The position numbers and the translations under genes are program-made. 64,000 nt of DNA, from positions 22,139 to 86,138 of the forward strand of contig JANORB010000038.1 of NCBI GenBank assembly GCA_031415135.1, read 5' to 3'. This DNA comes from Methylibium sp. GTDB taxonomy: Bacteria > Pseudomonadota > Gammaproteobacteria > Burkholderiales > Burkholderiaceae_C. The notes below the pieces were generated by a model. The model made no database searches. It had not been told where the DNA came from and saw only the letters and a list, made by a program, of their open reading frames with translations. Within the stretch, counting starts at the first letter, position 1; the number at the start of each line of letters is the position of its first letter. Positions 13,120 through 29,310 of the stretch are shown here, piece by piece.

Positions 13120-14481
13120 ATGCAGAGTTCCATCACCCTCCCACTGGACCGTGTTCCCGACGGCACGACGATGCCGGCGCAGATCGGCAAGTACCGCGTG
13201 CTCGGCAAGCTCGGCGAAGGCGCGACCAGCGAGGTCTTCTTGTGCCGCGACGATTTTCGCGGCCGCGACGTGGCGGTCAAGCGGGTGCGCGTCAGCGCCG
13301 TCGGCGACCCGATGGAGGGGCGCTATTTCGAGCGCTTCTTTGCCGCCGAGGCGGCCCTGGTCGGCCAGCTCCAGCACCCCAACGTGGTGCAGATCTTCGA
13401 CGCCGTGCCCGACCCGGAGCAACCCTATCTGGTGATGGAGTACGTGGCCGGCAGCACGCTGCGGCCGTACTGCCGGGCCGACCAGTTGTTGTCGCTGGAG
13501 ATGATCGTGGAGATCGGCTTCAAGTGCGCGATGGCGCTGGACTACGTGTTTCGCAAGGGCTTGATCCACCGCGACGTGAAGCCGGCCAACCTGCTGGTGT
13601 CGCTGGTCAACGGCAACGTCACCGGGGTGAAGGTCAGCGACTTCGGCAGCGCCCTCAACCTCGACTCCGACCTAACCCAGGTGCACCGGGTCGGCTCACT
13701 GGCCTACATCGCGCCTGAACAACTCGAGGGCGGCACGCTGGACTGCCGCGCCGACATGTACTCGCTGGCCGCGGTGATGTACCACTTGATCGCCGGCCGC
13801 CCGCCGCTGGACGCACCGGCGCACGCGGCGATGATGCACCAGGTCTACCACGCGCGGCCCGATTCGCTGGTGCCGCTGCGCGCCGGCGTCACCGAAGGGC
13901 TGGACGGCGTGATCCAGCGCGCTTTGGCCAAGAAGCCGGAAGACCGCTTTCGCAATTGGGATGAATTTGCGCAGGCCCTGGCCGGCCTGATCACCAACCG
14001 GCTGGTGCCGCGCGCCCAGGCCCAGGGCGTGCTCGACTCGGAGCGTTTCAACCTGCTGCGCACGCTGGAGTTTTTTGCCGGCTTCGGCGACGTGGAGCTG
14101 TGGGAAGTGGTTCACCGCGCCAGGTGGGAGCGCTTTCACTTCGGGCACGCGCTGTACCGCCGGGGTGAGGAGGGGCGCAGCTTTCACGTCATTGCCCATG
14201 GCGAGGTGGAGGTGTTTCGCGAAGGGCAACTGGTGGCGCAACTTGGGGTGGGCACCTCGGTGGGTGAAATGGCCTACCTGGCCCCCAGCAAGGGCCTGCG
14301 GCGCCACAGTGCCGACGTGATCGTGGCCAAGACCGCCACCACCATCTCGTTCACACCGGAGACCATGGCCCAGCTCAGCCCCGGGGGCCGCCACCTGTTC
14401 GACCAGGCATTCATCCATGTGCTGGTGCGGCGGCTGCACGCGGCGCACGAATCGCTGGCCCATCCGCGGCGCATTCTCTGA
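13120..14481 (+). CDS. Ser/Thr protein kinase fused to a C-terminal cyclic-nucleotide-binding domain
   Basis: GKLGEGATSEV...VAVK, HRDVKPANLL, SDFGSA and APEQ are Hanks kinase motifs. The C-terminal ~120 aa (FAGFGDVELWEV...FHVIAHGEVEVF...GVGTSVGEMAYL) resemble a cNMP-binding beta-barrel. Confidence 0.85.
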   Translation: MQSSITLPLDRVPDGTTMPAQIGKYRVLGKLGEGATSEVFLCRDDFRGRDVAVKRVRVSAVGDPMEGRYFERFFAAEAALVGQLQHPNVVQIFDAVPDPEQPYLVMEYVAGSTLRPYCRADQLLSLEMIVEIGFKCAMALDYVFRKGLIHRDVKPANLLVSLVNGNVTGVKVSDFGSALNLDSDLTQVHRVGSLAYIAPEQLEGGTLDCRADMYSLAAVMYHLIAGRPPLDAPAHAAMMHQVYHARPDSLVPLRAGVTEGLDGVIQRALAKKPEDRFRNWDEFAQALAGLITNRLVPRAQAQGVLDSERFNLLRTLEFFAGFGDVELWEVVHRARWERFHFGHALYRRGEEGRSFHVIAHGEVEVFREGQLVAQLGVGTSVGEMAYLAPSKGLRRHSADVIVAKTATTISFTPETMAQLSPGGRHLFDQAFIHVLVRRLHAAHESLAHPRRIL

Positions 14482-14985: not shown

Positions 14986-15905
14986 CATGCGTGCGTATCG
15001 GGTGCGCTCCAGTACGTCGCATCACCATAGGTGTGCTTCAGAAAATCGATCCACAAGCGCACCCGCAAGGGCAGGTGCTTGGCGTGGGGGAACACCGCGT
15101 AGATGCCGTTCGGCGGCGCCGCGAAGTCTTCCAGCACGTTGACCAGATGCCCGGCGACAACTTCTTTCTCGACTTCCCAGGTCGAGCGCCAGGCCAGCCC
15201 CATGCCGGCGACACACCAGTCGTGCAGCACCTGGCCGTCGCTGCAATCGAGCCGGCCGCTGGGCCGCAGGTGCGTCACGGCGCCATCGACGACGAAGGCC
15301 CAGCCGCGGCTCTGGCTGGCGTCGCTGCTCAGCGTCAGGCATTGGTGGCGCATCAAGTCGTTGGGGTGCTTCGGTGTGCCTGAGCGCCTCAGGTAGGCCG
15401 GTGTGGCCACGCACAAGCGGCGGTTGTCGGCCAGCCGAACGCTGACCAGGCTGCTGTCGGGCAGGTCGCCCACCCGCACGGCGCAGTCGACGCCTTCATT
15501 GACGATGTCCACCACCCGGTCGCTCAGGTTGAGCGACACATTCACATCCGGGTGCATGGCCAGGAAGCGCGGCACCAGCGGCGCCACGTGGCGCCGCCCG
15601 AAACCGGCCGGCGCGGTGACGCGAAGATAGCCGCTGGCCTTGACGCCGCCCGCGCTGACACTGGCTTCAGCATTGGCAAAATCTGCGAGCAAGCGCTGAC
15701 AATCTTCGAGAAAGGCGCTGCCTTCGTGGGTCAGCGTGATCTTGCGCGTGGTGCGCACCAGCAATTTCACGCCCAGCCGCTGCTCCAGTGCATCGATGCG
15801 CCGGCCGATCACTGCGGGGGCGACACCTTCGGCGTGGGCGGCTGCCGTCAGGCTGCCACGGGTCGAGACCGAAACAAACGATTCGATCTGCTTGAGTTTG
15901 TCCAT
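14985..15905 (-). CDS. LysR-family transcriptional regulator
   Basis: N-terminal HTH (FVSVSTRGSLTAAAHAEGVAPAVIGRRIDALEQRLGVKLLVRTTR) plus a LysR substrate-binding domain. Confidence 0.92.
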   Translation of the reverse strand: MDKLKQIESFVSVSTRGSLTAAAHAEGVAPAVIGRRIDALEQRLGVKLLVRTTRKITLTHEGSAFLEDCQRLLADFANAEASVSAGGVKASGYLRVTAPAGFGRRHVAPLVPRFLAMHPDVNVSLNLSDRVVDIVNEGVDCAVRVGDLPDSSLVSVRLADNRRLCVATPAYLRRSGTPKHPNDLMRHQCLTLSSDASQSRGWAFVVDGAVTHLRPSGRLDCSDGQVLHDWCVAGMGLAWRSTWEVEKEVVAGHLVNVLEDFAAPPNGIYAVFPHAKHLPLRVRLWIDFLKHTYGDATYWSAPDTHA

Positions 15906-15959
15906 GCGTGAAGACTACGCTCGGCCGGGTTGTTAATCAAATCTCCTGGGTCTCAGTTA

Positions 15960-15975
15960 GTGCAGTGAAATGCAC
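15960..15975. promoter_or_regulatory. candidate LysR-type operator in divergent intergenic region
   Basis: Inverted repeat GTGCA-gtgaaa-TGCAC between the LysR gene and the HAD/aceB genes. Confidence 0.3.
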
Positions 15976-16067
15976 GCAATGCGACGGCTGGATTGTTGCG
16001 CATTCGTCACAAATCCAGGCGTTCCGACGCCACTAATGGGGTCGGCCGCATCGCATAGATTCGCTCC

Positions 16068-16760
16068 ATGGCGGCCTCCGCAACATCCACATCCATCGCC
16101 CCGTCGGCCGTGCTGTTCGACGCGTATGGAACGCTGTTCGACGTCTACAGCGTCGGCCTGCTGGCCGAGCAGTTGTTTCCCGGCTTCGGCGAGCGCCTGG
16201 CGCTGCTGTGGCGCGACAAGCAGATCGAGTATTCCCGGCTGGCTTCGATGAGCGGGCGCTACCGCCCGTTCTGGGACATCACCCGCGCGGCGCTGCGGTT
16301 TGCCGCGTTGCGCCTGGGCCTCACGCTGGATGCCGGCGCCGAAGACCGGCTGATGAACCAGTACCGGCACCTCAGCGCCTTTCCCGAGAACCGTGACGTG
16401 CTGGCCGAATTGAAGCGGCGCGGCATCCCGGCCGGCATCCTCAGCAACGGCGACCCGGACATGCTGGCCGTGGCGGTCAAGAGCGCCGGCTTCCATGGGC
16501 TGCTCGATCCGGTGCTCAGCGTGCACGCAACGCGCAAGTTCAAGACCGACCCGGCCACCTATGCGTTGGGAACCGCCGCGCTGGGCCTGCCCGCGGCGCA
16601 GATCCTGTTCGTCTCCAGCAACGGCTGGGACGCCATCGGTGCCACCTGGTTCGGCTACACCACGCTGTGGGTCAACCGTGCCGGAGCGCCGCTGGAGCAA
16701 CTCGACACCCCGCCCACGCGCACCGGCACCAGCCTGCGCGACGTGCTGGCCTTTTTCTGA
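16068..16760 (+). CDS. haloacid dehalogenase type II (HAD superfamily)
   Basis: Motif I FDAYGTLFDV, then SNG... and the distal HAD motifs. Length 230 aa. Confidence 0.85.
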   Translation: MAASATSTSIAPSAVLFDAYGTLFDVYSVGLLAEQLFPGFGERLALLWRDKQIEYSRLASMSGRYRPFWDITRAALRFAALRLGLTLDAGAEDRLMNQYRHLSAFPENRDVLAELKRRGIPAGILSNGDPDMLAVAVKSAGFHGLLDPVLSVHATRKFKTDPATYALGTAALGLPAAQILFVSSNGWDAIGATWFGYTTLWVNRAGAPLEQLDTPPTRTGTSLRDVLAFF

Positions 16761-16780
16761 ACCTCGCTGGAGAGAACCAC

Positions 16781-18376
<1,596 letters not shown>

Positions 18377-18378
18377 AG

Positions 18379-19119
18379 TCAGGTCAACGTCGGCTGCGGC
18401 AACATCCTGCGCAGCGCCTCGAAGAACAGGTCCGACTGTTCGCGCTCGCCCTGAATCTGCGCCGCCACGCGCATCGAAAGCGCGGCATTCACCGGCGCCA
18501 GCGGCAGCCCGGTGGACGCCGCCAGCACCTGGTGCATGCAGGTGCGCTCCAGGTAGTACAAGTCGTCGTAGGCATGGGCGATGCGCATGCCGGTGACGAT
18601 GACACCGTGATTGGCCAGAAACGCCACGTCCCTGCCCTGCATCGCCCGCGCGATTCGTTCGCCCTCGGCCGCATCGAGCGCCAGGCCGTTGTAGCCGCTG
18701 TCCACCGCAATCCGCCCCATGAAGCGCATCGCGCCCTGGCTGAGGGTCGGGTCGAGCGCGCGGGCTGCGGTCAGCGTCAACGCGGTGGCATACGGCATGT
18801 GGGTGTGCAACACCACCGCCTGGCCGGTGAAACGATGCACCGCGGCGTGAATGAACATGGCGGTGGGCTCGACGCGGTGGCGGCCTTCGAGCACCACCCC
18901 GTCCCCATCCACCAGCACGATGTCGCCGGCCCCGATCTCGCTCCAGTGCAGCCCGCGCGGATTGATCAGGAAGCGCTGCGAATCATCCGGCAGCGCGACG
19001 CTGAAATGGTTGCAGACGCCTTCGGACAAGCCATGGTGGGCGGCGGCGCGCAGCGCCAGGGCCAGGTCTTGCTTGAGGGCGGGCAGTGGGTCTTGGACAA
19101 TCTCGCGAACAGTGGACAT
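18379..19119 (-). CDS. class II aldolase/adducin-family protein
   Basis: NHFSVAL...INPRGLHWSEI...VLHTHMPYATAL, with the His-rich metal site typical of Aldolase_II. Confidence 0.8.
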   Translation of the reverse strand: MSTVREIVQDPLPALKQDLALALRAAAHHGLSEGVCNHFSVALPDDSQRFLINPRGLHWSEIGAGDIVLVDGDGVVLEGRHRVEPTAMFIHAAVHRFTGQAVVLHTHMPYATALTLTAARALDPTLSQGAMRFMGRIAVDSGYNGLALDAAEGERIARAMQGRDVAFLANHGVIVTGMRIAHAYDDLYYLERTCMHQVLAASTGLPLAPVNAALSMRVAAQIQGEREQSDLFFEALRRMLPQPTLT

Positions 19120-19419
19120 TGAGTAACTCCAGGTCGGTGGTCGTCAACTTTCTCACAACTCCGAGAAGTGAACGGGTGCCTCCGCCGCGCGTGAGGATGC
19201 AAGCTGACCTTTCAATGGCGAACTACATACGGGTGGCTCGGGGCGGGCTCGCTATGCTGCGTCATTCGATGCCAGAGGCGTTCGGTCTGGCACACGCCAT
19301 CCAACATAGCTGCGGTTCGCTTGGCCTCTTTGTATCTGCGTGCAAGCGGTAAGGCGCGCAAGCAGTTGGCTGATGTCGATGTGACACCGCTCGAGCGACA
19401 TAAATGGGGAGAAGGGGCG

Positions 19420-22400
19420 ATGGGTGACGCCAGGGCAGCGCAACCTGCGGAAGATGCCAGACAGAAGGTCGAGAGACTCTTCCAGTTTATTCGTGCGTTC
19501 ACGAACTTTCGGCATCCGCTGCGGCGTCAATTGTCGGACCAGCCCGCCGCAAAGCTGCAGATTGCCTTCGATGCCTTACCCGCGACGAGCGAATGGATCG
19601 AGTCGTGGAGCGGGCCGGAAGATGACCGACGGTGGCTGCTCCGGGTCCGCCTCTGCCCGCCCGACCCATGCCCTCTTCCGCCGCAGCAAATCAAGGACTG
19701 GCTGTTCCCAGGTTGGGAGAAGCACATCGAGACCGCGCGGCACGCGGAGGAAAAGACATTCCGTGGGGCAGACGGCCAAACGGTGATCGAGAGGTTTTCC
19801 GATTCGACCACGCGGCCGGCGGTTTGGCTCGATTGGTCGGCGCAGCGCGAGACTTGGTCCCGGGTGCAGAAGAGGCATGACCCGGTGCGGATGCTGTTCG
19901 CGAATCTGCAGGCCATTCGGGCCGAGCTGCAAAAGCAGTCCGAGCAGGTCGAGTTGGTGCTCGGTGTCGGTCATCTGCGTCACCATTCAGATGGGCAGCA
20001 GTACGATCATCCGCTGGTGCTCAAGCCGATGGGAATTGAGTTTGATGGCCAAACGAACTGCTTCACGTTGACTGAAACTGATCGCGCTACCGAGATATAC
20101 GCGGAGCCCTTGGCAGAGTTGATGGTGGATCTGACTCCTTCGGGGAGTTGGCGAGAATCCTTGCAGGGACTGCATCCGCTGGACTCGCAAGCGGGTGTCA
20201 TCGTCAAGTCCATGGGTGATTGGCTTCGAAGTCAACCAGGGTTCGCAACCGCTCAACTTCCCCTTGCTCCGGTCATTTTCCTGCGTGACAGGGGCGGCTG
20301 GCCTGCGCGCGCAGCCAGCGCGGTACTCGAAGACCTTGCCACTCGCCCAATCGACGATCTGCCGCCATACCTGTTGCGGCTGGTCGGTCTTGCGCCAGCG
20401 GAAACCGATGACGACTCTCAGCTACATGCCGTTGATTTCGTCGCGAACGAATCACCGGACATTTTGTTCGCTCTACCGGCGAACCTCGAACAACTCCAGC
20501 TTGCGATGCAGATCGAACGCAAGGACGTGGTGTTGGTACAAGGGCCACCCGGTACTGGCAAGACCCACACCATTGCGAACCTCCTCGGCCATCTGCTATC
20601 GCAGGGCAAACGCGTGCTTGTCACCAGCCACTCTTCAAAGTCACTTCGCGTGCTACGGGACAAAGTGCCAGAAAACATTCAGTCGCTTTGCGTGAGTGTG
20701 CTGGACGACGCTTCGCGCAGTCGCCGTGAATTGGAGCAGGCAGTCCAATCCATCGCGAAGCGGATGCAGGAAGGCAACTCGAGTCTCTCGCACACAGTTG
20801 ATCGACTGGAGCGCGAACGCGCGGTGCTGCTCGAGAGCATCCAGCGCGCCCGTGCAGATCAGCGACTCTGCGTGCGACGCGAATACGACCCGATCGTGAT
20901 CGCAGGGTCATCGATCGAACCATCCCGCGCTGCGCGTGAGGTCCGTGATGGCGCACGTGACCACGCTTGGATCCCGGGTCCACTGCGGGAGGGTGAACTG
21001 GGCAAGGCTTGTCCCATCTCACCGGGAGATGTTCAGTCCTTGTATTTGAGTCAAGGTCGCATTTCGGCAGCTGACGAAACTCAGTTGGACGCAGGGCTGC
21101 CGACTCCCGGATGGCTGCCCAGCCCGATGGCGTGGCGACAACTGATGGATCAACTCGGCGCGCTTGACGCCGAAGCCCAGCAGATCGAGAGCCCCATTTG
21201 GCTGGGGGTCAATACACCTGTCGAAAAGTTGACATCGCATCTGTCCGTCGCGTCTGCGGCGCAGGACACGTTGAAGCGAATCACAAAACCAGGGCCATGG
21301 TTGATGGCACTGGTCGAGGCTGGAGCAGACGCCGACTGCCTTCCACATGAATGGCAAGAATTGCGGGACTTCGCTGCCCGAGTACAGACCTTCTACTCCA
21401 ACGCACAAGGCGCGTTGTTGGAACATGGCCCAGAGGTGCCGGAGCCGCTTTGCATTGAGGACACGGTTCAACACTTGCGCGATATCAGTGCCCACGTCGC
21501 GCAGGGCCGTGGATTGAAGGTCTACCAGTGGCCCATGAAGGCGCTTGCGCGAGGGCATTGGAAGAAATTGCTCGGTCATGTGCGGTGCAACGGTGAAGTT
21601 CCTTGGCAAGAGAAGCAATTCGACGCGTTGATACGGCACGTCGAGCTTCATCGCGCACGCGCTCGTCTCCGACGACGCTGGAAGCGCCAAGTGCAGGCGC
21701 TGGGCGGACCTCCTCTGCCCGACGCGTGTCCGGAAAAGACCGCCATCGATTGGCTGCCCTATGTCTTGGCGTCGCTTGGATGGTTCAGCCGCTATTGGCG
21801 TCCCGTGACTGAGGCGGCCGGGGCATACGGAAAGACTTGGGCAGAAATTGAATCGCGTTCGCCGCCTCAAGCGGGACAACATCCGCGGATCGCGAGGGCA
21901 CGCATCCTGTTGGACCAGCATCTGGTGCCGGAATGGAAGGCTCAGCTCGCTCGACGTGGAGCTGAAACAATTCGCGTCGAAATCGCGCAGTGGCGCGTTC
22001 GCCTGAATCGTGAAGTGCCGCAAGCCGCGTCACTCGGTGTCGTGGCCGGTATCGATCAGTCGATGTCGACTGTGGATTCCGCAGCGTATTCATCTGCGTT
22101 CGCCGAACTCGAAAGGTTGCGGTTGCTGGAACCAGAGCATCAGCGCCGTGATGCTTCGCTCAAGCAGCTAGCGCGGGGAGCGAGTGAATGGCATCGAATG
22201 CTGACGGACCGAGCCCCTGGGCACGATGCTCCTCTTTCACCTGGGCTTGATCTGGCGGCCGCATGGCGTTGGCGGCAATTGAGTGACGAACTGGTGCAGC
22301 GCTCGACGCTGGATGCCGAGCATGTTGCTGAAAGGCTGCGGCAGTTGACCGCTGCGCTGCAGCGGACGACGGGGGATCTGATTGCCGCGAGATGCTGGGC

Positions 22401-23589
22401 GCGTCAAATCCGCGTTGCTGAGCAATTTCGGCAGCATCTTGTCGGCTGGCTTGATTCAATGCGGCGAATTGGGCAGGGGACCGGACGAAACGCAGATCAC
22501 TACCGCATGCAGGCACGCGAACAACTCAAACAGGGTCAGCGCGCAGTACCGGTCTGGATCATGCCGTTGGCAGAAGTGTTTCGCAGCCTGACCGTGCAGG
22601 ACGGGCGCTTTGACGTTGTCATCGTGGACGAAGCAAGCCAAGCTGGGATTGGAGGCTTGCTCGCGGCCTATCTCGGTCGCAAGGTCGTTGTTGTGGGGGA
22701 TCACGAGCAGGTCAGTCCAGATGCGGTCGGCGATGATTCTGCCGTGGCGCAGGCGCTGCAGCGGCAGTTTCTCGAGGGCTTTCCCAGCGCAGCACTCTAC
22801 GACGGCAAGCTTTCGCTGTATGACCTGGGTCGCCAGACGGCGTCTGGCATGTTGAGCTTGAGTGAACACTTCCGCTGCGTTCCCGCAATCATCGGTTTCA
22901 GCAATCGACTCAGCTATGACGGGAAGATCCGCCCTTTGCGCGATTCGAGTTCATCCCCTTTGCGCCCTGTAGTCCCCCATCGTGTTCGGGGCCGACGTGA
23001 CGGGCGGCAGAAGATCAATCATGAGGAGGCGCACGAGATCGTTTCGCTTGTCGGGGCGATGTGCGAGATGGACGCATACGCAGCGCGCAGCATTGGTGTC
23101 GTCTCGCTACTGGGTGATGACCAGGCGAAGCTTGTCGAGACGCTGTTGAGGCGGCACGTTGCGGCCAAGGAGATCGAGGCACGCAAGATCATCTGTGGAA
23201 ACGCCGCCCAGTTCCAGGGCGACGAGAGAGAGGTCATGTTGCTCTCGATGGTGGACAGCAACGAAGGTGACGGTCCGATGCGCAAGGTCGGTGATGGTGC
23301 GAATGAACTCTACAAGAAGCGCTACAACGTGGCGGCCAGCCGAGCGCAAGACCAGATGTGGGTCGTTCATTCAATGGACTACAACACTGACCTGAAACCC
23401 GACGATCTTCGGCGCGAGTTGCTCGAGTACGTACACGTCGACGCGCAAAGCCAAGAGGCGAACGCATCCCCGCAGCGCACTGAGAGGCTGAGAGTCTTTC
23501 AATCATGCCCGCTCATCACACCAGAAGACGCCCGCTCGTCGTTGCAAATGCTCGCCATAGCCCGAGCTATGCCTGCGCTTTGCGCCTAG
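19420..23589 (+). CDS. large SF1 (Upf1/DNA2-like, AAA_11/AAA_12) helicase, Hhe-like; ends at an in-frame TAG
   Basis: ATG at 19420 with a GGGGAGAAGGGG RBS. Walker A VQGPPGTGKTHT (~20542), motif II VVIVDEASQ (~22616) about 690 aa later, VVVGDHEQVSP, and motif VI YNVAASRAQDQMWVV. Less GC-rich by eye than the flanks. Confidence 0.85.
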   Translation: MGDARAAQPAEDARQKVERLFQFIRAFTNFRHPLRRQLSDQPAAKLQIAFDALPATSEWIESWSGPEDDRRWLLRVRLCPPDPCPLPPQQIKDWLFPGWEKHIETARHAEEKTFRGADGQTVIERFSDSTTRPAVWLDWSAQRETWSRVQKRHDPVRMLFANLQAIRAELQKQSEQVELVLGVGHLRHHSDGQQYDHPLVLKPMGIEFDGQTNCFTLTETDRATEIYAEPLAELMVDLTPSGSWRESLQGLHPLDSQAGVIVKSMGDWLRSQPGFATAQLPLAPVIFLRDRGGWPARAASAVLEDLATRPIDDLPPYLLRLVGLAPAETDDDSQLHAVDFVANESPDILFALPANLEQLQLAMQIERKDVVLVQGPPGTGKTHTIANLLGHLLSQGKRVLVTSHSSKSLRVLRDKVPENIQSLCVSVLDDASRSRRELEQAVQSIAKRMQEGNSSLSHTVDRLERERAVLLESIQRARADQRLCVRREYDPIVIAGSSIEPSRAAREVRDGARDHAWIPGPLREGELGKACPISPGDVQSLYLSQGRISAADETQLDAGLPTPGWLPSPMAWRQLMDQLGALDAEAQQIESPIWLGVNTPVEKLTSHLSVASAAQDTLKRITKPGPWLMALVEAGADADCLPHEWQELRDFAARVQTFYSNAQGALLEHGPEVPEPLCIEDTVQHLRDISAHVAQGRGLKVYQWPMKALARGHWKKLLGHVRCNGEVPWQEKQFDALIRHVELHRARARLRRRWKRQVQALGGPPLPDACPEKTAIDWLPYVLASLGWFSRYWRPVTEAAGAYGKTWAEIESRSPPQAGQHPRIARARILLDQHLVPEWKAQLARRGAETIRVEIAQWRVRLNREVPQAASLGVVAGIDQSMSTVDSAAYSSAFAELERLRLLEPEHQRRDASLKQLARGASEWHRMLTDRAPGHDAPLSPGLDLAAAWRWRQLSDELVQRSTLDAEHVAERLRQLTAALQRTTGDLIAARCWARQIRVAEQFRQHLVGWLDSMRRIGQGTGRNADHYRMQAREQLKQGQRAVPVWIMPLAEVFRSLTVQDGRFDVVIVDEASQAGIGGLLAAYLGRKVVVVGDHEQVSPDAVGDDSAVAQALQRQFLEGFPSAALYDGKLSLYDLGRQTASGMLSLSEHFRCVPAIIGFSNRLSYDGKIRPLRDSSSSPLRPVVPHRVRGRRDGRQKINHEEAHEIVSLVGAMCEMDAYAARSIGVVSLLGDDQAKLVETLLRRHVAAKEIEARKIICGNAAQFQGDEREVMLLSMVDSNEGDGPMRKVGDGANELYKKRYNVAASRAQDQMWVVHSMDYNTDLKPDDLRRELLEYVHVDAQSQEANASPQRTERLRVFQSCPLITPEDARSSLQMLAIARAMPALCA

Positions 23590-24069
23590 ATCGGCCGCCT
23601 TCTGGCGCGCTGCTCGGACACGCTCGAAAAACTCTCAGCCTCTGAGTCCGAGTTTGAAAGACTTGTATTGAAAGCGCTCCAGGCGCGTGGCTACTCGGTT
23701 CGGACTCAATACCCTGTGGGCCACTATCGGATAGACATGGTCGTGGAGCGCGATGGTCGAAAACTTGCCGTTGAATGCGATGGCGAACGCTGGCACTCCG
23801 GCGCTGAGAAGATTGCGGAGGACATGGCCCGCCAATCTGTTCTGGAAAGGCTCGGATGGCGGTTTCACCGAATTCGCGGGAGCCAATTCTTTCGAGACCC
23901 CGATCAGACCTTGGCAGCCCTCTGGGAGCGGCTTGCGCAGCGAGAGATTCAACCAGCGGGAGTGACTGTTGCCGCTCCACCCGGCGATGACATTCACGAG
24001 TTGCTGCTGCGGATAGCGTCGAATCTGCGCGATTCTTGGTTTCCAGTGCCCTCAACGCCTGACGCGTAG
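23590..24069 (+). pseudogene. DUF559/Vsr-like (REase) nuclease domain, same frame as the upstream helicase, detached by one TAG
   Basis: No stop occurs between TAG 23587-23589 and the tracked TTG start at 23668. The domain-like sequence [20 protein letters not shown]...[10 protein letters not shown]...[11 protein letters not shown]...[11 protein letters not shown] begins upstream of any start codon. Confidence 0.7.
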
Positions 24070-24087
24070 CGAAGGGGTAGTAGCGCA

Positions 24088-24360
24088 CTACCGCCGCTTC
24101 TGCGCCGCGTGCCACACTTGGAGTATCTGAACCTGATCGCTCCGCACACGATAGGTCAGCAGGTAGTTCCGGTGCACAACCAGTTCACGCGTGTCCTGGT
24201 ACCCACCGATGCGGCCGATGAGCGGAAACCGCTCGAGGTTCATCGCCTTGGTGCTGATGTCTTCCACCAGGCGGCTGGCGGCCGAGGGATTGTCGGCGGC
24301 AATGTAGTCGGCGACGCGGCGAAGGTCGCTCAGCGCGCGCCGCGTCCACGCCAGCTTCAT
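24088..24360 (-). CDS. type II toxin, RelE/ParE family
   Basis: 90 aa. WTRRALSDLRRVADYIAADNPSAASRLVEDI...YLLTYRV...VQILQVWHAAQ matches ParE/RelE. Confidence 0.88.
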   Translation of the reverse strand: MKLAWTRRALSDLRRVADYIAADNPSAASRLVEDISTKAMNLERFPLIGRIGGYQDTRELVVHRNYLLTYRVRSDQVQILQVWHAAQKRR

Positions 24361-27473: not shown

Positions 27474-28235
27474 ATGTGCCAGTTGCTCGGCCTGAACGCC
27501 AACACGCCGACCGACATGGTGTTCAGCTTCACCGGCTTTGCCACCCGCGCCGACGAACACAAGGACGGCTTCGGCATTGCCTTCTTCGAAGGCGCCGGCG
27601 CGCGCCTGTTCGTCGACGCCCAGAGCGCGCGCAGCTCGCCGGTGGCCGAGATGGTGCGGCGCTACCCCATCAAGAGCGAAAACATCATCGCCCACATCCG
27701 CAAGGCCACGCAGGGCCGGGTGGCGCTGGAAAACACCCACCCCTTCATGCGCGAGCTGTGGGGCCGCTACTGGGTGTTTGCGCACAACGGCGACCTGAAG
27801 GATTTCAACCCGCGCCTGCACGGGGCGTTCAGGCCGGTGGGTGGCACCGACAGCGAGCGTGCGTTCTGCTGGCTGATGCAGGAGCTGGCCAAGGCGCACG
27901 CCAGCGTGCCGTCGATTGCCGAGCTGACCGCCACCTTGCGCGAGCTGGCGCCGCAAGCCGCGCGCCACGGCACGTTCAACGTCATGCTCAGCAACGGCCA
28001 GGCGCTGTGGGCGTTTTGTTCGACGGCGCTGCACTCGCTGGTGAGGTGCGCGCCGTTCGGCCACGCGCAGCTGCGGGACGACGACATCAGCGTCGACTTC
28101 GCCGACTCGACCACACCCGCCGACCGGGTCGCCGTGGTCGTCACCGAGCCGCTCACGCACAACGAGGACTGGCAGGCGTTTGCGCCGGGGGAGTTGCGGG
28201 TGTTCGTCGGCGGCGCGCCGGTTGTGTGCACCTGA
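27474..28235 (+). CDS. class II (Ntn) glutamine amidotransferase, YafJ-like
   Basis: MCQLLG with N-terminal nucleophile Cys2, DGFGIAFF, HIRKATQG, HPF and FAHNGDL. Confidence 0.85.
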   Translation: MCQLLGLNANTPTDMVFSFTGFATRADEHKDGFGIAFFEGAGARLFVDAQSARSSPVAEMVRRYPIKSENIIAHIRKATQGRVALENTHPFMRELWGRYWVFAHNGDLKDFNPRLHGAFRPVGGTDSERAFCWLMQELAKAHASVPSIAELTATLRELAPQAARHGTFNVMLSNGQALWAFCSTALHSLVRCAPFGHAQLRDDDISVDFADSTTPADRVAVVVTEPLTHNEDWQAFAPGELRVFVGGAPVVCT

Positions 28236-28385
28236 CCGAGTACGCATGCATTGGCGGTCATGCGCCGCGCCCCCTGCTACATTGGCGGATTCTTTTTCGC
28301 GCCCTTGTTTCTGGCTGAAGCTTTGGGCGCCTTGCTTTGCGTTCCAGCCACCAGGCCGCACCGCACTGGGAGTGGGGGGAGAAAA

Positions 28386-29183
28386 ATGAAGTCCCAAGCA
28401 CAGAGGGTCTCGTGGGAGCTGATCCAACGATTGGCCGCACATGCCGCTGCGAGCCTTCAGTCCTTCCCGGCCTTTGCGGGCATGGCGAGCGTTCAACCGC
28501 CTCCTAACGGCGTCAGCGCGATTGCCAGCAAGGGCGGCTCGGCAGCGCTCGGATCGACTGGCGGCCTGACCCTGATCAAGAATGCCGCCGCCTTCTCGAT
28601 TCCCTCGTTCGAAACCGAGAATTCGGTGGTCCAGCAGGGCGGCGCCGTGGCTCACTATGCTCACGTGCGAAGAACAACTTCGAGCGACGCGACGCATGAG
28701 TGTTACTACCCTGGCCCGGGTGATCACGTCCGACCCGGGATGACACAGCGGATCGACGGTCAGCTGTACACCCACTACTTTCGAATCAGTCATCAGGTCT
28801 CGGAACTCATTCGGCGGGGCGAGGAGGAGCATCTCGCGGACGCACAACGGGCCTACGAACTCGTGTACGAGCTCATCGCGGACACCATCAATTCAATGGC
28901 CACCGAGCGTTTCGGGCCGGCCCACAGCCCTGCGGAGGCGAATCGACTCGCAGAGGCAGAGCTTGCAAGAAGGCTTCCAAGACAATTGGGAACGGACCCT
29001 CGGAACTGGGTCGCGGTGCTCAACCGGTTGCTGCTCCAGACCCAGGAGCGCGACCGCAGGAAATGGCATGCGATCACCAACGACCCGCCTCTGACCCTGG
29101 GAGACAGGATCATTCATCCGGTCGTCAGGGCGGCAAGCACGCGCATTGGGGACGTGCCCTCCAGCCAGGTGGTGGGGTACTGA
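28386..29183 (+). CDS. hypothetical protein (orphan)
   Basis: ATG at 28386 with a GGGGGGAG RBS. 265 aa with no family recognised. Less GC-rich by eye than its neighbours. Confidence 0.55.
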   Translation: MKSQAQRVSWELIQRLAAHAAASLQSFPAFAGMASVQPPPNGVSAIASKGGSAALGSTGGLTLIKNAAAFSIPSFETENSVVQQGGAVAHYAHVRRTTSSDATHECYYPGPGDHVRPGMTQRIDGQLYTHYFRISHQVSELIRRGEEEHLADAQRAYELVYELIADTINSMATERFGPAHSPAEANRLAEAELARRLPRQLGTDPRNWVAVLNRLLLQTQERDRRKWHAITNDPPLTLGDRIIHPVVRAASTRIGDVPSSQVVGY

Positions 29184-29310
29184 CTCCCGTGTGGGCGCTG
29201 CGAAAAAGTCGATGCGTCTCGATGGTTCCACGCCCGCCCGGCCAGGCTGCCGGCTTGCCCGATGACACACTCGACACACTCGCCGGCTTGCCCCGGATCA
29301 ATCCATCCTC

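Follow-up and report, generated by a model that had tools for sequence, protein, structure and literature searches.

Two antiphage systems that each consist of a single large protein, Hhe and Prometheus, are the closest described counterparts of the gene examined here. Hhe is reportedly the HheA of Gao et al. 2020 (NCBIfam NF042953, PADLOC PDLC02194), while ProA, the Prometheus protein (NF058533), is said to go back to van den Berg et al. 2024. Mokosh, credited to Millman et al. 2022, is said to pair a helicase with a PLD-type nuclease. Hhe defends E. coli against lambda, T3, T7 and PhiV-1, and the replacement E1731A in its Vsr domain abolishes this activity (bioRxiv 10.1101/2022.06.16.496414). 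Prometheus is likewise described as a validated single-protein system, in which DUF4011 and DUF3320 accompany a DNA2-like domain that contains an insertion (PMC13700489). The MTES_1575 nuclease was defined as a Vsr-family restriction endonuclease (REase) fused to superfamily 1 (SF1) helicases (PMC3710099). Here we describe a gene for a helicase and such a nuclease in a 64,000-nucleotide stretch of Methylibium sp. DNA (contig JANORB010000038.1), called the window below. We conclude that it is probably a horizontally acquired member of an unnamed helicase–nuclease family which a miniature inverted-repeat transposable element (MITE) has inactivated, and whose intact protein would be a stand-alone enzyme of defence or of action against mobile elements.

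What does this gene encode? The helicase open reading frame (ORF) runs on the forward strand from an ATG at 19420 to a TAG at 23587–23589 and specifies 1389 aa. The sequence ggagaagggg lies directly 5′ of the ATG, and in an alignment this start coincides with that of the homologues. Pfam detects AAA_11 (4.8e-19, 69.6 bits) and AAA_12 (1.1e-15, 58.2 bits, residues 1142–1317), both above the cut-off of 27. Walker A (residue 375) and the DEASQ of motif II (residue 1070) are 695 aa apart, and GDHEQ, GNAAQFQGDER and NVAASRA follow at residues 1093, 1260 and 1303. Both domains exceed the gathering score, and motifs I, II, III, V and VI can all be located, which makes this an Upf1-like SF1B helicase. 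Matches to sequences in the PDB are confined to Upf1, Sen1, IGHMBP2 and DNA2; they are short, run via the helicase motifs and have E values of 1e-7 to 6e-10. These enzymes share the SF1B motifs but are without the N-terminal domain, the 600-aa helical insert and the Vsr-type nuclease.

Beyond the TAG the frame of the helicase continues through 23590–24069, where it encodes a complete MTES_1575 domain (PF18741; 7e-35, 119.4 bits against a cut-off of 38.2, profile positions 1–96 of 96) that also matches DUF559 (3.4e-10). The motifs YRID and ECDGERWH, which the family conserves, supply the D...ExD...H core; full-length domain and core together identify a Vsr-type REase. A first-pass annotation of this DNA had described a protein of about 1390 aa with Walker A and motif II some 690 aa apart, an Upf1/DNA2-like AAA_11/AAA_12 helicase with motifs V and VI, and an in-frame REase-like domain at 23590–24069. 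All of this agrees with the measured lengths, the motif positions and the Pfam matches. It had also called the nuclease detached, without noticing the 54 codons of a mobile element that lie between the two parts. Read as a two-part design, the detachment falls: the separation is a MITE insertion with an in-frame TAG.

The evidence for the insertion is as follows. Aligned with its homologues, the window sequence alone has 54 extra codons between ...QRT and ESEFERL..., and the TAG is among them; intact homologues read ...RT-ESEFERL... without interruption at this linker. Joining the flanks gives ACT GAG TCC GAG, which encodes the T-E-S-E of the homologues; their DNA has ACC GAG or ACA GAG at this point and no insert. 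The inserted 162 bp start and end in inverted repeats (GAGGCTGAGAGT and ACTCTCAGCCTC), with CTGAG on both sides. The 167-bp stretch is represented in its own genome by at least 11 full copies and by 26 partial ones at contig ends, at 98–99% identity. The element is non-coding and 157–162 bp long, and nearly all copies are flanked as C-TGA...TGA-G, the final G being variable in four. Its predicted fold is an end-to-end hairpin of −72.9 kcal/mol (z −5.1). Diverged relatives (76–93% identity) are present in eight of the 40 related genomes searched, and a search of the element and its surroundings against Rfam gave no match up to E 0.1. A sequence that is short and non-coding, ends in inverted repeats, lies between constant short flanking repeats and is present in many genomic copies is a MITE, and we regard the insertion as real with near certainty.

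Could the gene be a continuous fusion in which a simple nonsense mutation, or an error of sequencing, produced the single in-frame TAG between two same-frame parts? The prospect is negligible. The codon falls within the 54-codon insertion that the homologues lack, the insertion is 98–99% identical to many other copies in the genome, and the same junction recurs in an independent assembly, the metagenome scaffold L021 described below. The homologue alignment, the MITE copies and the L021 junction thus refute this explanation.

How does the element compare with the bacterial MITEs derived from insertion sequences (ISs)? It is like them in its length of about 160 bp, its lack of coding capacity, its terminal inverted repeats, its fixed short flanking repeat, its end-to-end hairpin and its many near-identical, assembly-breaking copies. 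It differs in that no transposase gene with matching ends was found here. No autonomous IS bearing these ends was found in the genome, where the terminal repeat occurs only in two MITE families and at a few solo sites, and the sole DDE_Tnp_1 gene (C19) has no such ends nearby. Because the assembly is fragmented (94% complete), the absence of a parent IS is not proven by this search. The ends start with GAG and border a 3-bp TNA duplication, a combination that we take to be reminiscent of the IS5 family (IS1031 group). The element has undergone a recent multiplication in this genome. Long open frames are common in this GC-rich genome, which makes frames at the other copies a poor guide to whether these interrupt genes.

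Two further observations concern the MITE. At least 26 contig ends stop 137–142 nt into it, among them the end of the window's own contig (C38:95137-95277), so that the element accounts for many of the 280 contig breaks of the assembly. A second MITE family, also of about 160 bp, has nearly the same terminal repeats (GAGGYTGAGAGTTTTTT and GAGAGTGAGAGTTTTTC) but a different interior. It comprises about 16 copies flanked as TCA...TCA, with examples outside the window at C44:2899-3058, C225:10115-10274 and C234:20798-20958. The two families probably share one transposase.

Does the nuclease part retain a start of its own? The sequence that separates the TAG from the nuclease domain contains neither an ATG or GTG nor a clear ribosome-binding site. 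The first canonical start past the TAG is a TTG at 23668, five codons into the domain, and no promoter-like site for a separate nuclease was found. A separate nuclease start was rejected on these grounds. Amber read-through was rejected as well, since ARAGORN, run on the whole genome, found no suppressor tRNA, only tRNA-SeC.

These results bear on the idea of a functional two-part system, a split Hhe-like module in which helicase and Vsr-type nuclease cooperate as separate polypeptides. The motifs of both parts are all intact, an ORF from TTG 23668 does exist, and a two-gene variant of Prometheus with separated parts is reported from an Asgard archaeon (PMC13700489). Against this, what separates the two parts here is a MITE with dozens of copies elsewhere in the genome, the only start lies inside the domain it would have to precede, and helicase and nuclease are fused in nearly all of the homologues listed. 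Moreover, a sister copy with the same insertion has a frameshift and a change at an invariant residue of motif VI. We consider a working two-part system quite improbable, and prefer the reading of one fused gene interrupted by a mobile element.

The sister copy is that of L021, an independent metagenome scaffold from a sister strain that matches window positions 18261–23532 with 99.85% identity over 5.27 kb. Upstream it has the same aldolase gene; its sequence passes into the MITE at the very base where the window's does, and breaks off after 53 nt of the element. Its helicase has lost 2 bp (window 23224–23225) within a GAGAGAGAG run. All five substitutions that distinguish the two copies within the gene are non-synonymous, four of them derived in L021, and one replaces Ser1307 of motif VI, a serine in 71 of 71 homologues, by Asn. 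Judged by its sequence, the L021 pattern fits relaxed selection after a shared insertion.

What is left of the window copy? Of the 274 positions conserved at 90% or more in the family it matches 267, the median of the intact homologues. Since it is otherwise pristine, the insertion event was presumably recent. The MITE brought an in-frame TAG, so that translation would end after the helicase and 34 junk residues; for the same reason the copy is most likely inactive. We think a loss of function quite probable, and a recent pseudogene is the most likely description of the gene.

Frames are shortened in about 7 of some 68 family loci elsewhere (L039, L043, L069, L075, L089, L115 and L116), as pseudogenes or through assembly errors. 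If these truncations in other species are real, loss of this gene is common.

How did the gene arrive at this locus? In a genome of the same genus (G008) the class II aldolase gene (window 18410–19119) and the ParE side (window 24082 onwards) are only 91 bp apart. The aldolase gene and the block of ParE, antitoxin and MFS genes are collinear between the window and G008 at 82–85% identity, and the helicase gene is absent from G008. The helicase–nuclease gene is therefore a single-gene insertion of 4.96 kb. Its GC content is 0.59–0.62, against 0.64–0.72 in the flanks. We read it as horizontally acquired. The less GC-rich islet of the first-pass annotation is thereby borne out. The toxin–antitoxin pair placed beside it does adjoin, but belongs to the backbone and not to the islet, because it is conserved in G008, which lacks the helicase gene. 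The coordinates of the features are collected in table 1.

Table 1. Features of the disrupted helicase–nuclease gene and its surroundings (window coordinates).
Feature	Position	Strand	Basis
MITE copy including the CTGAG flank on each side; net insertion 162 bp (54 codons); terminal inverted repeats GAGGCTGAGAGT...ACTCTCAGCCTC	23480..23646	.	Alignment gap, genome copies, folding
In-frame TAG stop inside the MITE	23587..23589	+	
Native helicase coding part, residues 1-1355 of the disrupted gene	19420..23484	+	ORF, Pfam AAA_11 + AAA_12
Family-specific N-terminal domain, residues 1-355	19420..20484	+	AlphaFold2 model, pLDDT 90.1
Walker A GPPGTGKT, residues 375-382	20542..20565	+	
Large all-helical insert in RecA1 between motifs Ia and II, modelled as residues 440-1060	20737..22599	+	AlphaFold2 model
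Motif II DEASQ, residues 1070-1074	22627..22641	+	
AAA_12 region, RecA2, motifs IV-VI	22843..23370	+	Pfam AAA_12
Uncoupled C-terminal nuclease part; MTES_1575/DUF559 Vsr-type domain 23653-23934, then a short tail and stop	23647..24069	+	Pfam
Single-gene islet, 4.96 kb, between class II aldolase gene and ParE gene	19120..24081	.	Synteny with G008, GC
ParE toxin gene, neighbour outside the islet	24088..24360	-	Pfam ParE_toxin 9.4e-20

Is the gene, then, a disrupted Hhe? The likeness is considerable: in Hhe, too, one large protein joins an AAA_11/AAA_12 helicase of SF1, whose Walker A and motif II are separated by a long insert, to an MTES_1575 Vsr-type nuclease at the C-terminus. As references we took Hhe genes scoring above the cut-off, and also 120 Hhe proteins. 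Compared with true Hhe by hhalign, residues 316–1475 of the family align to Hhe 298–1714 at a probability of 100%. The cut-off of the Hhe model is 2000 bits, and it is approached neither by the window's helicase part (71.8) and nuclease part (65.8) nor by an intact homologue, P0002 (136). All 120 retrieved Hhe proteins carry DUF4011 (PF13195); the window protein shows none at Pfam E up to 0.01, the Pfam lists of 120 listed homologues are without it, and the family is about 300 aa shorter. The N-terminal 315 aa of the family are not alignable to Hhe. A remote DUF4011 in the N-terminal domain was tried and rejected (hhalign probability 0.3–1%, E 0.056), though a short GxLxW...HP(L/I)LL-like stretch aligns in both hhalign runs of that domain against Hhe, which is suggestive and not significant. 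Helicase, insert and nuclease in one polypeptide, a feature of Hhe, are found in the intact family members but not in the window copy, whose nuclease is cut off by the MITE and its TAG.

Scores of 72 and 66 bits (136 when intact) against 2000, the lack of DUF4011 and the unalignable N-terminal 315 aa thus place the family outside Hhe. The first-pass annotation had proposed an Hhe-like or related antiviral helicase–nuclease. It was right about the broad architectural class, an SF1 helicase with MTES_1575, and wrong in so far as membership of Hhe was meant. Of the domain families it named for a search, profiles recover AAA_11, AAA_12, MTES_1575 and DUF559 but not DUF4011. Of the N-terminal part of about 370 aa, for which it suggested an alignment to HheA-type proteins, the first 315 aa do not align (probability 1%).

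With Prometheus the outcome is similar. ProA is the best NCBIfam match and Hhe the next, both far below their cut-offs: for ProA this is 1500 bits, against 126.2 and 71.7 for the two window parts and 190.7 for P0002. ProA is also described as a single protein with a DNA2/Upf1-like helicase, a characteristic insertion and a nuclease region. It differs in being described there as a four-domain protein with an N-terminal DUF4011 and a C-terminal DUF3320 (PMC13700489). Pfam finds neither of these two domains in the window protein, and neither is in the family's precomputed Pfam lists. By sequence comparison the family is a sibling of Hhe and Prometheus and a member of neither, with a common helicase–insert–nuclease chassis and a different front domain.

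Other candidates come from PADLOC. For the window pieces its models rank as MkoC, MkoA, PDC-S37 and Hhe. Mokosh was rejected, since MkoC (1e-35) and MkoA (5e-32) cover only the C-terminal half of the helicase, a PLD domain is missing from the Pfam matches and the nuclease belongs to MTES_1575. For intact relatives PDC-S37 (PDLC05009) comes first, with E values of 1e-55 to 1e-64; for the two window parts they are 7e-32 and 2.7e-22. PDC-S37 is similar in total length, and the C-terminal half of the helicase and the nuclease align. Of its 1550 profile positions, however, only about 645–1359 and a second short stretch are covered, the N-terminal part is unmatched, and PDC-S37 is itself a candidate system. 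We found no mention of it in the literature searched.

How widespread is the family? A search of 5.8 billion proteins returned more than 5000 relatives, the closest 67% identical; P0002 and P0007, both naturally intact, stand at 62–67% identity. Among the matches listed, almost all are 1490–1700 aa long and carry helicase and MTES_1575 in one chain. In the bacterial family of the host a relative is present in 6 of 151 genomes, and one of these is close (62%). Family loci in genomes number at least 269; they come from Betaproteobacteria, Acidobacteriota, Gemmatimonadota, Planctomycetota, Verrucomicrobiota and Bdellovibrionota, and further ones from Bacillota, Fusobacteriota, Nitrospirota and lineages of the candidate phyla radiation. 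The distribution is patchy, sparse over many phyla. On plasmids there are distant family members only.

AlphaFold2 models built on a 72-sequence alignment describe the two parts that set the family apart from ordinary SF1B helicases. The N-terminal domain is modelled with confidence (table 1) as an alpha/beta fold with a 40-residue helix and a sheet of beta-hairpins. A Foldseek search of the PDB gave no meaningful match to it (best E 0.07, TM <0.15), and BFVD yielded one marginal match (E 3e-3, TM 0.21), a phage-metagenome 'AAA domain protein'. The N-terminal 355 aa are found in 632 clusters at 50% identity; in the best 150 of these 632 the domain lies at or near the N-terminus, mostly of proteins of about 1500–1760 aa or of shorter fragments. 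The insert is nearly all helical in its model (pLDDT 91.8). It too has no meaningful Foldseek match in the PDB, where the best hits (E 0.03, TM <0.15) are generic coiled coils, and it aligns by hhalign with the corresponding insert of Hhe.

How might the intact protein work? It consists of four parts: the N-terminal domain, an SF1B helicase with the helical insert of about 600 aa in RecA1, a short linker and the Vsr-type MTES_1575 nuclease. Helicase, insert and nuclease are common by descent with Hhe and with ProA of Prometheus, the front end being different. We propose that the N-terminal domain and the insert recognise an abnormal or foreign nucleic-acid structure, that ATP then drives 5′→3′ translocation on that nucleic acid, and that the C-terminal nuclease then cuts. 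The enzyme would act alone, in defence or against mobile elements. In the window copy, the 162-bp MITE has landed at a CTGAG site in the linker between helicase and nuclease, bringing the in-frame TAG. The nuclease is left without a start codon of its own, and the copy was most probably inactivated recently.

What argues for a stand-alone role in defence or against mobile elements? By analogy this is the most likely function of the family, and we lean slightly towards it because of the patchy distribution, the mobility as a single gene and the kinship with validated systems. Several observations weigh against the reading as a whole. The 115 immediate neighbours at 61 loci are mostly metabolic or housekeeping genes; the defence-like ones are HEPN_Swt1 (twice), DUF499 (twice), ResIII (once) and a DNA methylase (once). 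With so few, the classic defence-island signal is weak, and for this reason the defence role is one that we infer. The family was not found on phages in the phage collection. As to inactivation, the extra damage in L021 could partly be metagenome assembly error. The helicase part of the window copy may still do something; because it keeps its conserved positions as the intact homologues do, sequence alone leaves room for some remaining function.

The alternative is an accessory enzyme of DNA or RNA metabolism outside immunity, engaged in repair, in the processing of R-loops or replication forks, or in plasmid maintenance, whose loss would be irrelevant to phage defence. The housekeeping neighbours suit it, and no conserved partner gene, of defence or otherwise, emerged from an all-against-all comparison of 451 flanking ORFs from the 61 complete-gene loci, in which the largest cluster spans 7 loci. 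On three long contigs the family gene stands alone among core genes, and a large DUF4011 gene of P. aeruginosa reportedly belongs to the core genome, being found in every isolate (PMC10250203). Against this alternative stand the very patchy distribution, with the gene missing even from G008 of the same genus, the low-GC single-gene islet, the thin scatter over many phyla and the tolerance of loss; the chassis, moreover, is common by descent with two experimentally supported antiphage proteins. We judge the metabolic alternative unlikely, and retain a defence or anti-mobile-element role as the preferred one.

If that role is correct, the family might constitute a third, unnamed branch of single-protein helicase–nuclease immunity beside Hhe and Prometheus, with a new N-terminal sensor in place of DUF4011 and with the window copy freshly silenced by the MITE. 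We advance this proposal, by analogy with the two systems, tentatively; its least likely extension is that precise excision of the MITE could reverse the silencing. At their curated cut-offs the annotation models of Hhe and ProA would miss the family, a group of thousands of sequences in many phyla that has its functional core in common with two validated antiphage systems of the single-protein type. With a front domain unlike theirs, the family lends itself to comparisons that ask what the corresponding domain of Hhe- and Prometheus-type enzymes senses. For the genome studied here we recommend an annotation of the gene as interrupted by a mobile element; it should be listed neither as a functional defence system nor as a module of two genes.

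Three further observations were made elsewhere in the window. A block of about 1 kb (28225–29258) with an orphan ORF (28251–29183, no Pfam match) has no counterpart at the syntenic place in G008, and is possibly a further small insertion. A second local difference in gene content lies at 15905–18409: the genes for a HAD-hydrolase and malate synthase likewise have no counterpart at the syntenic place in G008, which has about 3 kb of unmatched sequence there. Finally, the product of the gene at 13120–14481 combines a Ser/Thr protein kinase with a cyclic-nucleotide-binding domain in one fusion (Pfam Pkinase 1e-45, cNMP_binding 4e-9).

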